DNA of 64,000 nucleotides from a virus: positions 17,141 to 81,140 of the IMG/VR virus record IMGVR_UViG_3300020185_004330. One strand, given 5' to 3'. Below, piece after piece: positions 17,097 through 56,130 of this stretch. Under the pieces are notes generated by a model, which was not told the DNA's origin, searched no databases, and was given only the letters and a program-made list of their open reading frames with translations. The position numbers and the translations under genes are program-made. Position 1 is the first letter of the stretch. Every line of letters begins with the position of its first letter.

Positions 17097-17741
17097 ATGA
17101 AGGATAAAGTAAGAAAATTAAAGTTAAAAAAACTAATACAAGAATATAATTTTTTGCTAACTGATGAAAGCTACAAAAAAGAAGTTATTAGCGAAACAAA
17201 ATCAGATTTTCTTAAAGAAATACATGAAAAAAAAATAGAATTAGGACTAATAGAAAATGAGCCATTTCAAGAAGTAATACACGAAGAAAATTCTGATGTT
17301 AAGGGTGAAAATGTTGAAACAAAAGAAAGTGATGAAGCAAACTTAGAGGATGACTCAAAAGACCCTAAAGACATCAAAGACAAAGACTTATTAGAAAATA
17401 AAGAAAAGTCAAAAAAATCATCTAAGGTAAAAAAGTTATATAGAGAAATTGCAAAAAAAACACACCCAGACAAAGCAAAGTCAAACGAACATGTTGACTT
17501 GTATAACAGGGCCACATCGGCATATGAAGATAGTGATTTGATATCATTATACATTATTGCTTCAGAATTAGATATTAACGTAGAGCTGGATGAAGATGAT
17601 ATTCTTAATATAAATGAAACAATAAACCATAAAAGAAAACAGTTACATAACTTAGAAATGTCTTACCTTTGGCTATGGTATAATGCTAAAACAAAAGAAC
17701 AAAAAGAAAAGGTTGTAGCTTTGTTTATAAATAAAAACTAA
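17097..17741 (+). CDS. J-domain (DnaJ-like) co-chaperone
   Basis: VKKLYREIAKKTHPDK...LYNRATSAYE contains the HPD motif. Confidence 0.8.
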   Translation: MKDKVRKLKLKKLIQEYNFLLTDESYKKEVISETKSDFLKEIHEKKIELGLIENEPFQEVIHEENSDVKGENVETKESDEANLEDDSKDPKDIKDKDLLENKEKSKKSSKVKKLYREIAKKTHPDKAKSNEHVDLYNRATSAYEDSDLISLYIIASELDINVELDEDDILNINETINHKRKQLHNLEMSYLWLWYNAKTKEQKEKVVALFINKN

Positions 17742-52195: not shown

Positions 52196-52468
52196 ATGAA
52201 AAAACTAAACACTATTTTATACATTCTAATTTTGAGTTTCTTAATTGCAGGATGTGCAGACGTAAGCCCTAACGCAATCGATTGTGTTAATGAATCTTCT
52301 TATGGATTCTTTGGTGGTTTATGGCATGGACTAATATCAATATTTTCTTTTATAGGAAGCCTATTTATGGATGATGTGGCAGTGTATGCCTATAACAACA
52401 ATGGAGCCTTGTATGATTTTGGTTTTTTACTGGGGGCTGGGGCTTTTGCTTCTCGTGCGACAAAGTAG
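52196..52468 (+). CDS. Small lipoprotein/membrane protein
   Basis: Lipobox-like LIAGC; GFFGGLWHG...YDFGFLLG hydrophobic segments. Confidence 0.7.
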   Translation: MKKLNTILYILILSFLIAGCADVSPNAIDCVNESSYGFFGGLWHGLISIFSFIGSLFMDDVAVYAYNNNGALYDFGFLLGAGAFASRATK

Positions 52469-52472
52469 TAAT

Positions 52473-52796
52473 TTGACAATTACAAAACACATACTACTAG
52501 AAGGCAAAAAGTCAGTCAACGGACTAGAAGTTTCTGATAATTTGGGTATAATGAATTGGTATGAGGCAATAGTTGCTTGCAAAAGTTTGGGACCAGGATG
52601 GAGATTGCCAACAAAAGACGAATTGAATATGTTTTATGAAAATAAGGAAGAAATTGGCGGTTTTGCTTTTAACGGCTATTGGAGTTGTACGGATTTCGGG
52701 AACCTCAATGCGTGGAATCAGAATTTCTACGATGGTGTCCAGTACTACAACGGTAAGGACGACTTCATCTATGTTCGCGCTGTTCGGGCTTCTTAA
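52473..52796 (+). CDS. DUF1566/CLec-fold variable protein, copy 1
   Basis: W..A...C..LG.GWRLPTKDEL...YWS...AW...F..G......K....VRAVR; TTG start by parallel with copies 2-5. Confidence 0.85.
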   Translation: MTITKHILLEGKKSVNGLEVSDNLGIMNWYEAIVACKSLGPGWRLPTKDELNMFYENKEEIGGFAFNGYWSCTDFGNLNAWNQNFYDGVQYYNGKDDFIYVRAVRAS

Positions 52797-52816
52797 CAAT
52801 TTAACTATTTAACCAT

Positions 52817-53140
52817 TTGACAATTACAAAACACATATTACTAGAAGACAGAAAGTCAATCAACGGACTAGAAGTGTCTCATAATCTAGGGTCAATGAAT
52901 TGGCATGAAGCAAAAATTGCTTGTAAAAAATTAGGACTAGGATGGAGATTGCCAACAAAAGACGAATTAAATATGCTTTATGAAAATAAGGAAGAAATTG
53001 GCGGTTTTGCTAATGTCAACTATTGGAGTTCTACGGTGTTCGTTAACTCCAGTGCGTGGGCTCAGGGTTTCAACAATGGTAGCCAGTTCTTCGACTTTAA
53101 GTACTTCAACCTCTATGTTCGCGCTGTTCGGGCTTCTTAA
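52817..53140 (+). CDS. DUF1566/CLec-fold variable protein, copy 2
   Basis: Same motifs as copy 1; variable region ~53009-53140. Confidence 0.85.
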   Translation: MTITKHILLEDRKSINGLEVSHNLGSMNWHEAKIACKKLGLGWRLPTKDELNMLYENKEEIGGFANVNYWSSTVFVNSSAWAQGFNNGSQFFDFKYFNLYVRAVRAS

Positions 53141-53160
53141 CAATTTAACTATTTAACCAT

Positions 53161-53484
53161 TTGACAATTAAAAAACACATATTACTAGAATCAAGAAAAG
53201 CAATTAATGGATTAGAAGTCTCTAATAATTTAGGTCGTATGACTTGGTATGAAGCAATAAGTGCTTGCAAGAATTTGGGAACAGGATGGAGATTGCCAAC
53301 AAAAGACGAATTGAATATGCTTTATGAAAACAAGGAAGAAATTGGCGGTTTTGCTAATAACTTCTATTGGAGTTCTACGGAGAACGATAACTACGATGCG
53401 TGGAGACAGTATTTCGGCGATGGTAACCAGTACAACTTCAATAAGCTCGACACACTCTCTGTTCGGGCTGTTCGGGCTTCTTAA
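53161..53484 (+). CDS. DUF1566/CLec-fold variable protein, copy 3
   Basis: Same motifs; variable region ~53353-53484. Confidence 0.85.
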   Translation: MTIKKHILLESRKAINGLEVSNNLGRMTWYEAISACKNLGTGWRLPTKDELNMLYENKEEIGGFANNFYWSSTENDNYDAWRQYFGDGNQYNFNKLDTLSVRAVRAS

Positions 53485-53504
53485 CAATTTAACTATTTAA
53501 CCAT

Positions 53505-53828
53505 TTGACAATTACAAAACACATATTACTAGAAGGTAAAAAGTCAATCAATGGATTAGAAGTCTCTAATAATTTAGGATATATGACTTGGCATGAAGCA
53601 ATAAGTGCTTGCAAAAAATTAGGAACAGGATGGAGATTGCCAACGAAAGACGAATTGAATATGCTTTATGAAAACAAGGAAGAAATTGGCGGTTTTGCTT
53701 ATTTCTTCTATTGGAGTTCTACGGAGACTGGTAACGGCAGTGCGTGGGTTCAGTATTTCTCCAATGGTGTCCAGGGCTACTACAATAAGCTCAACTGCTA
53801 CTGTGTTCGCGCTGTTCGGGCTTCTTAA
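53505..53828 (+). CDS. DUF1566/CLec-fold variable protein, copy 4
   Basis: Same motifs; variable region ~53697-53828. Confidence 0.85.
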   Translation: MTITKHILLEGKKSINGLEVSNNLGYMTWHEAISACKKLGTGWRLPTKDELNMLYENKEEIGGFAYFFYWSSTETGNGSAWVQYFSNGVQGYYNKLNCYCVRAVRAS

Positions 53829-53848
53829 CAATTTAACTATTTAACCAT

Positions 53849-54175
53849 TTGACAATTACAAAACACATACTACTAGAAGGCAAAAAGTCAGTCAACGGAC
53901 TAGAAGTTTCTGATAATTTGGGTATAATGAATTGGTATGACGCAAAAATTTACTGCAAAAAATTAGGAGCAGAATGGAGATTGCCAACAAAAGACGAATT
54001 GAATATGCTTTATGAAAACAAGGAAGAAATTGGCGGTTTTTCTAATAAGTTCTTCTATTGGAGTTCTACGGAGTTCGATTTCTCCAGTGCGTGGACTCAG
54101 AATTTCCTCCTTGGTTACCAGGGCACCAACAATAAGGACAACGTCACCTATGTTCGCGCTGTTCGGGCTTCTTAA
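53849..54175 (+). CDS. DUF1566/CLec-fold variable protein, copy 5
   Basis: Same motifs; variable region ~54041-54175 with one extra codon. Confidence 0.85.
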   Translation: MTITKHILLEGKKSVNGLEVSDNLGIMNWYDAKIYCKKLGAEWRLPTKDELNMLYENKEEIGGFSNKFFYWSSTEFDFSSAWTQNFLLGYQGTNNKDNVTYVRAVRAS

Positions 54176-54209
54176 CAATTTAACTATTTAACAATTAAAA
54201 TAAATATAT

Positions 54210-54241
54210 TTTTTATCTAATGTAATATTTTTATATATTTG
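54210..54241 (+). promoter_or_regulatory. Bacteroidota-type promoter candidate (-7 box TATATTTG) upstream of the tRNA cluster
   Basis: TAnnTTTG match at 54234-54241. Confidence 0.45.
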
Positions 54242-54290
54242 TCGTTAGGTAAGAAAAGGTTCTTTGAAATGTTGGAAAAGTAATTTAAAT

Positions 54291-54367
54291 GGACGGGTAG
54301 CTCAGCTGGATAGAGCCACGCACTTCTAATGCGTAGGTCGAAGGTTCGAATCCTTCTCCGTTCACCA
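54291..54367 (+). tRNA. tRNA-Arg (anticodon UCU)
   Basis: Full cloverleaf; anticodon arm ACGCA-CTTCTAA-TGCGT; GGTTCGAATCC T-arm; encoded CCA. Confidence 0.95.
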
Positions 54368-54373
54368 TTTATA

Positions 54374-54682
54374 GGGCCTCTAGCTCAGATGGTTAGAGCA
54401 ACTGACTCATTAGTAATAGTGCCGTTAGCAAGAAATTGTTAAATGTGAATGGGGTGAATTCAAGGAAATCTTAACACGTAACGGTGATGACAACCATGAG
54501 CCAAGTCTGTGGTACACCACAGAAAGGTGCAGAGACTACTGGAGAAGTTTAGCCTTCTTAATAACCAGGTTTAGCGCCCCAAACCCTAACGTAAAGACGA
54601 GGGTTATGAGATAGTCCACAGAGTTATGAAAATAACACAAATGTGAATCAGTAGGTCACAGGTTCGAATCCTGTGGGGCCCA
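54374..54682 (+). tRNA. tRNA(CAU), probably Ile2 (lysidine type), split by an intron: exons 54374-54410 and 54646-54682
   Basis: Joined exons give a cloverleaf with ACTGA-CTCATAA-TCAGT; G1-C72 and no GGG/CCC anticodon stem, so not an initiator tRNA. Confidence 0.85.
54411..54645 (+). ncRNA. ORF-less group I intron (IC3-like, 235 nt)
   Basis: 5' exon ends in U and intron ends in G; P AATTCAAGGAAA, Q AACCATGAGC, R GTGCAGAGACTA, S GAGATAGTCC; P3 GGGGTG/CGCCCC. Confidence 0.85.
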
Positions 54683-54710
54683 CTAAGCTTTTTTATGACT
54701 ATTTATAGTT

Positions 54711-55592
54711 ATGGAAAAGAAAAAGTGTGTTAATTGTGATTTGGAATTTGAATCTAAATCTAAAACAAAGAAGTTTTGTAGTGTAAAATGTTCTTGTTCT
54801 TACAACAATAAAAGAAAAGAAAACACTAGCAAAAAAAGTGAAGTAAAAGAAAAGCTTAGAAAAAAAGCCCTAGAACAATACGACAAAAAGTATGGAGCCT
54901 TAAAAAAGTTTGATGTTAATTGTAAATGTTGTGGAGCTATAGTTGTTGTAGAAGAAAGGGAAAAACAGTTTCCCAAAAAAGATAAATACTTTTGCTCAAA
55001 GTCATGTAGCAATACTAGGCGTCACACATCTGAAACTAAAAGTAAGATAAGCAATTCTTTACATGGTACTGGCAACAAGGATGTATTTATAACTTGTAAA
55101 CAGTGTAATGTTAAGTTTGAGCGCAAATGGACAAAGAGAAATCAGAAATTTTGTTCCCGAAGTTGTGCCTCTAAATTTGTTAGTAATACAGAAGAAAGAA
55201 AAAGTTTACAAAGTTTAATAGGTAGAAGGTCTGCTGCTAAGCAATCTATAGAAAGAAGGAGTAAAAATGAAATTCATTTTGCCAACCTTTGTAAGGAAGA
55301 GTTTAGAAAAGTAATTACAAATGAGCCTATTTTTAACGGCTGGGATGCTGATGTTATAGTTCAAGATTTAAATATAGCTGTACTTTGGAATGGTAAATGG
55401 CATTATGAGAAAATTACTGAATCACACTCAGTTTCTCAAGTTCAAAATAGAGATAAAATTAAAATAAAAGAAATAAAAAAAGCAGGATATATTCCATATG
55501 TTATAAAAGATATGGGAAGAGCTAATAAAGAAAAAGTTGAAAAAGAATTTAAAAAATTTATAAAATTTGTAAATCAAATTAAATTGCGATAA
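54711..55592 (+). CDS. Free-standing putative homing endonuclease (Zn-ribbon repeats + Vsr/PD-(D/E)XK-like C-terminus)
   Basis: Three CxxC...FCSxxC repeats; NEPIFNGWDADVIV..LNIAVLWNGKWHY. Confidence 0.65.
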   Translation: MEKKKCVNCDLEFESKSKTKKFCSVKCSCSYNNKRKENTSKKSEVKEKLRKKALEQYDKKYGALKKFDVNCKCCGAIVVVEEREKQFPKKDKYFCSKSCSNTRRHTSETKSKISNSLHGTGNKDVFITCKQCNVKFERKWTKRNQKFCSRSCASKFVSNTEERKSLQSLIGRRSAAKQSIERRSKNEIHFANLCKEEFRKVITNEPIFNGWDADVIVQDLNIAVLWNGKWHYEKITESHSVSQVQNRDKIKIKEIKKAGYIPYVIKDMGRANKEKVEKEFKKFIKFVNQIKLR

Positions 55593-55664
55593 TGGTGTAG
55601 GAAAGGTCTCATGAGCCTTTTTGGGAGATATCCCTCCGTCAAGTTCGAATCTTGAAATCGCGAC
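55585..55664 (+). tRNA. Atypical tRNA-like element, CAU anticodon, degenerate D-arm, long variable arm
   Basis: TGCGAT/ATCGCG acceptor pairing, AAGGT-CTCATGA-GCCTT arm, GGGA-GATA-TCCC arm, TCAAG-TTCGAAT-CTTGA T-arm; only ~11 nt lie where the D-arm should be. Confidence 0.45.
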
Positions 55665-55666
55665 TA

Positions 55667-56130
55667 AGCAAGCAGCTGTCACCTTCAACTTTAATAAGGA
55701 GAGTTTAATAGTCACTTCTTAGACACTGCTTGCATCTTATTAACCTGACACAGCGGGTTATTAGAGGTTGTACGGTCCAAATTTACTCTTTAAAGCCTTA
55801 AGGGACCTATGCTGGAGAACCAGACGATGGAGTGATGAAACCTTGGACATTTAGCTGATGCATTAGCTGATGTTTATATGGGAATAAGCCATTTGAAAGA
55901 ACGGGGCGGACTGTGAAAAAAACTGCCCCTTTTTAAGACATTTAAAATTCGTGCTGTTTAATCAACGGCTAGTCCAGTTCATAGGACGATGAGAAATGGT
56001 ATGATAACCATAATGGAGATACTCCAACAGTAGTTAAGTCTACACAAGTGTTCAGGATAGGTGTGAGTCGTTGTTGACACCCTGCCGCCAGGTATTGGAA
56101 GAAGCGTCCTTGAGATAGCACCCGCTTGAT
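55667..56130 (+). ncRNA. Unassigned structured non-coding region (probably two or three RNAs)
   Basis: No credible ORF (only a 95-aa antisense frame clips its 5' end), higher GC than flanks, many stems, terminator-like GGGGCGG/CTGCCCC-TTTTT at ~55903-55934. Confidence 0.5.

Follow-up and report, generated by a model that had tools for sequence, protein, structure and literature searches.

Diversity-generating retroelements (DGRs) are generally treated as self-contained, the element that benefits from the hypermutation also bearing the reverse transcriptase (RT) and the template repeat (TR). Short targets made of a DUF1566 domain alone, tandem target arrays and remote targets within one cellular genome are already known: in the 2017 survey (PMC5758913), about half of the 'category d' targets are short and domain-only, a Stenotrophomonas DGR holds eight targets in tandem, and no remote targets are expected for phage-associated DGRs. 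In the laboratory, plasmid-borne avd-TR-brt was found to retrohome into a replicating phage lacking these genes (PMC3240598). Here we describe a tandem array of five mini-genes in the IMG/VR virus record IMGVR_UViG_3300020185_004330. The window, which is the whole stretch of 64,000 nucleotides analysed (positions 17,141 to 81,140 of the record), is part of a sequence of 87,981 bp (31% GC, 27% complete by CheckV). The variable regions (VRs) at the 3' ends of the five genes carry an adenine-specific signature against a real template, and the cassettes that hold this template lie in Bacteroidota chromosomes.

Adenine-specific variation against a real template

The mini-genes form a single array at 52471-54196 with a period of 344, 5.0 copies and 83% matches (Tandem Repeats Finder), and their open reading frames (ORFs) are all on the plus strand (Table 1). 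An earlier note, made from the letters of the window, had described five tandem genes of 107-108 amino acids at a 344-bp period, which is borne out, the fifth unit being longer by 3 nt than units 1-4. The TTG start of each gene sits within a conserved 20-nt spacer, and the first copies of related arrays have ATG at this position. Among 25 distinct homologues, 1377 synonymous versus 765 non-synonymous single-base differences were counted in codons 2-26, and the N-terminal codons of the mini-genes are thus under purifying selection. This synonymous excess and the ATG starts in related arrays indicate that all 107 amino acids are translated.

The VRs were compared with the TR of locus L051, which comes from a genome other than the phage. 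The five VRs differ from it at 121 of 255 adenine sites and at only 7 of 330 other sites (Fisher p 1e-43), and the replacement bases are T in 67 cases, G in 37 and C in 17. Over the 19 AAY codons of the TR in the five VRs, the first two bases are altered in 68/95 cases and the third base is retained in 93/95. The skeleton of the TR agrees with the phage VRs at 66/66 non-adenine positions of the mutable part, the seven deviations each occurring in one VR. When 19 phage VRs from many contigs were compared with the same TR, 440/969 adenine sites and 29/1254 others differed, so that only 2% of the non-adenine positions change; these 29 mismatches in 1254 positions make L051 the best fit among ten TR variants. 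In the last 45 codons of the genes the variable columns number 21, 24 and 6 at codon positions 1, 2 and 3, and in the first 64 codons they number 13, 11 and 17.

The earlier note had read the genes as targets of adenine-specific DGR mutagenesis and had named beforehand, as the pattern speaking against this, an even spread of differences over non-adenine or third codon positions; no such spread was seen (121 versus 7), and the A-rich template exists, in Bacteroidota chromosomes outside the phage record. The template inferred there from the five copies agrees with the L051 TR except at codon 12 (GAT, not AAT), codon 18 (AAA, not AAT) and the 3' end. Its count of third bases kept in 101/105 cases over 21 columns is close, although the GAT and AAA template codons had been counted as AAY; the third base varies in one column because template codon 18 is AAA. 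As proposed, TAT changes only at its A (to TCT in copy 3 and TGT in copy 4), the 3' end of the VRs is nearly constant (five matches of the last 24 nt with 0-2 mismatches, versus 0 expected), and the sequence after the stop codon is constant, the 20-nt spacer being the same in copies 1-4. Every VR is distinct, and the five targets have therefore been diversified independently, as the note had also held. On these sequence patterns, the five genes are almost certainly DGR-written targets.

In copy 1 the VR consists, in order, of an 11-nt 5' homology block (TTGGCGGTTTT), 117 mutable nt, a GC-rich end resembling the initiation of mutagenic homing (IMH) site, and the stop codon. The 11-nt block is common to the TR and the VRs. 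Mutagenesis ends just upstream of the IMH, which reads GTTCGGGCTTCTTAA in the phage VRs versus GTTCGGGGTTTTAAA in the template, and the divergence at the 3' end (GGGCTTCTTAA in the phage VRs, GGGGTTTTAAA in the TR) is the IMH/IMH* arrangement of DGRs. One IMH base is specific to the phage, with GCTTCT in all phage VRs and GCTTTT in bacterial VRs. Directly after the target stop codon there are two to three tandem copies of an 8-mer, YATTTAWC, in bacteria (L045, L051, L080-L087) and phage alike, and at least two repeats were detected in 55 of 86 distinct VR tails versus 0.2% of random 36-mers. In the phage the next gene starts within the third 8-mer, and the bacterial targets have a small CCGC-GAA-GCGG hairpin after the 8-mers. 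The BPP-1 DGR requires a hairpin directly after the IMH (PMC3240598). The post-stop 8-mers are a candidate cis element for target recognition or retrohoming in this DGR family, and may replace a hairpin of the BPP-1 type as the mark of the target site.

All five proteins score above the gathering threshold of Pfam Lcl_C (PF07603; 39-53 bits versus a cut-off of 34.9), in agreement with the DUF1566 C-type-lectin-like domain assigned before, and this is their only domain. Among solved structures, the C-terminal domain of Legionella Lcl, itself lectin-like, comes nearest (PDB 8q4e; profile E 2e-18, residues 10-107). The fold prediction suggested in the earlier note contributed nothing further: the AlphaFold2 model was poor (29-row alignment; predicted local distance difference test score, pLDDT, 57, and <50 in the VR) and gave no Foldseek match at E<0.001, its weak matches being all lectin-like with 8q4e on top. 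No signal peptide was found in the five mini-proteins, the array lies outside the tail module at ~45 kb from the baseplate gene, and there is no other DUF1566 gene anywhere on the 87,981-bp record. The idea that the mini-genes are silent cassettes was rejected, since the record holds no larger DUF1566 gene for recombination and the N-terminal codons are under purifying selection. The most probable role of the mini-proteins is that of a small group of binders, either soluble or attached to the virion, and the five VRs may amount to the "binder library" suggested earlier.

Table 1 Features of the mini-gene array (coordinates in the window)
Feature	Position	Strand	Basis
Mini-gene copy 1, TTG start, Lcl_C/DUF1566 alone, 107 aa	52473..52796	+	ORF list; Pfam Lcl_C E 8e-10
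Mini-gene copy 2, 107 aa	52817..53140	+	ORF list; Pfam Lcl_C E 2e-12
Mini-gene copy 3, 107 aa	53161..53484	+	ORF list; Pfam Lcl_C E 9e-14
Mini-gene copy 4, 107 aa	53505..53828	+	ORF list; Pfam Lcl_C E 7e-14
Mini-gene copy 5, 108 aa, extra codon near VR 5' edge	53849..54175	+	ORF list; Pfam Lcl_C E 2e-13
VR copy 1	52654..52796	+	Mismatches to L051 TR: 23 adenine-site, 3 other
VR copy 2	52998..53140	+	Mismatches to L051 TR: 27 adenine-site, 0 other
VR copy 3	53342..53484	+	Mismatches to L051 TR: 19 adenine-site, 2 other
VR copy 4	53686..53828	+	Mismatches to L051 TR: 28 adenine-site, 1 other
VR copy 5	54030..54175	+	Mismatches to L051 TR: 24 adenine-site, 1 other (3-nt insertion removed)
Post-stop tandem 8-mers after copy 1 (CAATTTAAC TATTTAAC CATTTGAC)	52797..52821	+	Third holds copy 2 TTG start
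Post-stop tandem 8-mers after copy 2	53141..53165	+	Repeat comparison
Post-stop tandem 8-mers after copy 3	53485..53509	+	Repeat comparison
Post-stop tandem 8-mers after copy 4	53829..53853	+	Repeat comparison
Post-stop 8-mers after copy 5, two repeats, then array end	54176..54196	+	Sequence

Cognate cassettes in Bacteroidota chromosomes

The earlier note had advised searching the full genome for the template and for an RT. Within the 87,981-bp record, which is 27% complete, a blastn search for the template (word size 7) returned only the five VRs and no TR, and there was no match to RVT_1, to the profile of the cognate RT or to bAvd. An RT and TR within ~50 kb of the target, as in a self-contained phage DGR of the BPP-1 type, were absent across the 69.6 kb upstream and 16.6 kb downstream of the array that the record spans. 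Neither RT nor Avd was found in any array-bearing locus (for L005, L023, L024, L026 and L068 the source metagenome records were not covered whole), and no RT was found in the other array-bearing IMG/VR records. Searches of 2.9 million IMG/VR contigs with an exact TR 30-mer and a Y-degenerate 41-mer gave 0 matches; the nearest IMG/VR RT was 62% identical, and a compatible template was present in 0/56 related viral DGR loci. Scanning metagenome contigs with the invariant VR skeleton gave 76 loci; this pattern fixed T where the template codon is AAA and left the TR unmatched, and the metagenome collection was not scanned for the TR itself.

True TRs were identified in L051 and L045 by blastn with the inferred template, restricted to VR-holding loci. 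The TR 30-mer was detected in 8 of ~185,000 species genomes, all of which are metagenome-assembled genomes (MAGs) of Bacteroidota (Flavobacteriales, Crocinitomicaceae, Chitinophagales and Ferruginibacter), and in each of the eight the target, bAvd, TR and RT stand in a row. With L045 and L051 (metagenome contigs) and three further RT relatives of 81-94% identity, 13 cassette contexts were obtained. All 13 lie beside housekeeping or Bacteroidota-typical genes (RibD, PBP4, PheS, DHODH, GAPDH, PGK, SusC/D, PorP and HsdM), and no phage genes were found near the cassettes in these contexts. The cognate cassette, composed of target, bAvd, TR and RT, is thus located in Bacteroidota chromosomes, and because its insertion sites differ, it appears to move. 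Of the four runs that contain the phage, two also have a TR, Avd and RT of the L051 type; in the phage-holding runs X1 and X7 the contigs, which prove presence only, give no cover of L051-type RT/Avd. Depths differ in run X2, where contigs of up to 239 kb touch the array locus, and nothing is drawn here from depths or gaps.

The bacterial cassettes show some further features. In L045, L051, L080-L087 and L169-L171 the RTs are 81-94% and the TRs 91-99% identical, and the cassettes occupy unrelated chromosomal sites in several Bacteroidota orders, one of them adjoining insertion sequence (IS) elements. Related cassettes at unrelated sites across orders suggest that this small DGR spreads horizontally. 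The Flavobacteriales MAG G011 has two DGR cassettes of different TR types (L110, G011:C84, 667-3572), and in the Crocinitomicaceae MAG G008 a 984-kb contig bears an additional target gene of greater divergence (L109, G008:C158, 6305-7498), well away from the cassette.

Rewriting in phage DNA and its possible writer

Copy 2 of the array has the same scaffold as copy 1 of L001/L002 (192/192 positions identical), and the two VRs differ at 24 sites, all of which are template adenines; the phage DNA flanking the array is only 80-90% identical between this record and L001/L002. L009 and L069 show 4 scaffold differences, and in the VR they differ at 18 adenine sites and 1 other. Alternative VR alleles of copies 2, 3 and 4 were found in contigs from four public marine runs of four studies (those of copy 3 in runs X2, X4 and X7). 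All listed differences inside the alternative VRs are at template adenines, bar one that restores the template base (hand-checked). By these comparisons, and by the phage-specific IMH base kept in all phage VRs, rewriting evidently took place while the genes sat in phage DNA.

In the mechanism we propose, the RT would copy the template RNA and misread its adenines, and the cDNA would replace the last ~117 coding nt of each mini-gene, between the TTGGCGGTTTT block and the GC-rich IMH. Each copy would thereby end in its own lectin-fold surface built from the 19 AAY codons. The phage would carry the cis elements only; upon infection, a DGR of this family residing in a Bacteroidota host or in another co-resident replicon would write the phage VRs in trans. 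Taken as a whole, this explanation, in which the genes are DGR targets and the writing is done in trans by a non-phage cassette, is the best we can offer, and we would put its chances at about even. Its specific form, in which the infected Bacteroidota cell does the writing with its chromosomal DGR and the process is natural cross-genome mutagenic retrohoming, is tentative, falling just short of the midpoint in our estimation. With the host as writer, the virus might be a lytic marine phage that keeps cis elements on an expandable array of lectin mini-genes and so gains hypervariable binders without an RT of its own, a picture we hold equally tentatively.

A pattern of this kind might in principle arise without any retroelement, by diversifying selection or by gene conversion among the paralogues, since tandem copies are able to exchange sequence and joints between copies are present in run contigs. 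However, neither process would spare the third codon positions (93/95) or recreate the non-adenine skeleton of an independent bacterial template at 66/66 positions, and this explanation is hardly credible. Another possibility is that the array is a frozen relic, whose VRs date from a phage cassette since lost, or from before capture, and today undergo ordinary mutation and recombination only. The recurrence of the same VR alleles over studies and years would agree with this. However, identical scaffolds bear 24 adenine-only VR differences, several alleles per locus exist among the public runs, and the non-adenine VR positions have changed by just 2%; moreover, every copy retains the IMH, 5' block and post-stop repeats without a change, though the scaffolds of the paralogues are 16-40 nt apart. 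We consider a relic improbable.

A more serious alternative, to which we give a substantial minority share of belief, is that a complete cassette of this family (RT, Avd and TR) belongs to the phage itself and lies in the portion of its ~260-330-kb genome that the record lacks, the array being a set of remote targets on the same chromosome. A phage-borne cassette would fit the 27% completeness of the record, the documented DGRs with non-adjacent targets (PMC5758913) and the clear occurrence of rewriting in phage DNA. However, the 2.9 million IMG/VR contigs, at least four of which hold the array, contain no compatible TR and no close RT; here the 69.6 kb preceding the array and the 16.6 kb following it are free of a cassette, as are ~75 kb upstream in G002; relatives of 232 kb and 291 kb lack an RT; and all 13 cassettes with known context are chromosomal. 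Such a layout would also be atypical, as phage-associated DGR targets are nearly always <50 kb from the RT in the 2017 survey (PMC5758913).

Several observations weigh against trans-writing by a non-phage cassette. With the record 27% complete, ~180-240 kb are unseen and could hold a phage-borne cassette. The neighbouring SNF2 helicase led to two near-complete relatives (G003, 232 kb, 88% complete; G005, 291 kb, 91% complete), but these have neither RT nor array and so do not decide the matter. Identical VR alleles of copies 1, 2, 4 and 5 (covering 52638-52797, 52985-53141, 53667-53833 and 54011-54177) recur in runs of three studies from 2021-2024; single alleles thus persist for years, and rewriting is therefore infrequent or episodic. 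No stable structure was predicted downstream of the phage IMH (z-scores 0.99 and -0.18), where the small GC hairpin of the bacterial VRs is absent, and the phage copies therefore depart from the hairpin rule of BPP-1. Finally, the hints at a Bacteroidota host are weak, consisting of low Shine-Dalgarno use, the 31% GC content and the TR match itself. Shine-Dalgarno-like motifs stand upstream of 5% of long ORFs, at or below background level, which suits a Bacteroidota host and is a weak hint, not proof. A DNA similarity search for a host link with five DGR-bearing MAGs gave VR/TR and tRNA matches only, and the SNF2 helicase was at most 30% identical to those of cultured phages (tblastn), with no clue to the host.

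Phage lineage and comparison with known systems

Among the gene products of the record are a baseplate wedge protein and an SbcC-like nuclease, and 8 of the 10 large proteins tested had no PHROG match. Since its relatives reach 232 and 291 kb, the virus is a large, poorly known marine myovirus-like phage. This lineage is widespread in marine metagenomes and maintains from 1 to 5 or more target genes per array: 25 distinct mini-proteins were collected from tandem arrays of 1-5 copies in IMG/VR, Tara and other marine assemblies, some copy counts being cut by contig ends. The arrays occupy at least two genomic contexts, and among close relatives the copy number is 5 here, 3 in L002, 1 in L095 and 0 in L102. 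One gene, copy 2 of L003 (10328-10651), has the VR skeleton AW-LFSF-YYGAAS and fits neither TR1 (18 non-adenine mismatches) nor the second TR of G011 (21); it may have a template of another kind, or the copy may be decaying.

In the window the array adjoins DNA-metabolism genes and a tRNA. It belongs to a 3.2-kb block (52494-55667) that also holds tRNA-Arg(TCT) at 54291-54367, a further tRNA-like stretch and a 293-aa ORF at 54711-55592; the close relatives L102 and L089 have only ~260-300 nt in place of this block. The 90-aa ORF directly upstream of the array (52196-52468) has a lipoprotein-type signal (LIAGC) and no Pfam match, and is conserved in array-less relatives.

The template family was found only in cellular chromosomes, and yet the targets were evidently rewritten in phage DNA. 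If a cellular cassette is the writer, hypermutation would be usable across genomes, and a VR-to-TR match would provide a new link between phage and host, like a CRISPR spacer. Even with a distant cassette of the phage's own, two features would be unusual, namely that five cytoplasmic lectin domains of 107 aa are encoded in an array away from the tail module, and that tandem 8-mers mark a target site devoid of a hairpin. Full-text literature searches and term look-ups in DGR papers returned no report of a natural phage-borne target array with a cellular template family.

Concerning the protein, the W-RLPT, YWSS and VRAVRA motifs of Lcl (8q4e; PMC11162425), whose fold is lectin-like, align with the phage proteins. 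Lcl differs in being a trimeric, collagen-stalked adhesin that binds glycosaminoglycans and has no DGR diversification. The DGR of Legionella pneumophila and the 'category d' targets (DUF1566, CLec2) of Wu et al. 2018 likewise have the VR in a DUF1566 lectin-like domain, but their arrays (PMC5758913) lie inside a cassette with its own RT and TR, and LdtA is a surface lipoprotein.

The BPP-1 DGR (mtd-avd-TR-brt; PMC3240598) resembles the phage array in its IMH/IMH* directionality and in that AAY codons at the C-terminal end of a lectin-fold protein are mutated at their adenines, but BPP-1 carries its own cassette beside a single tail-fibre target, and its action in trans was engineered, not natural (PMC3240598). 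The remote-target DGRs of Treponema denticola and cyanobacteria resemble the array in that one template serves several dispersed VRs with a common IMH; they differ in that all their targets are in the same cellular genome. The chromosomal Bacteroidota DGRs from marine and freshwater sources (L045, L051, L080-L087) have the same TR skeleton, 5' block, kind of IMH, 8-mers and Lcl_C variable domain as the phage genes. In the bacteria, however, each target is the product of a lone gene, measures 240-460 aa and has collagen or PTL_trimer stalks besides a signal peptide, and its gene is followed by the GC hairpin and adjoins Avd, TR and RT, whereas the phage genes are five 107-aa domains alone, with no signal peptide, hairpin or cassette seen.

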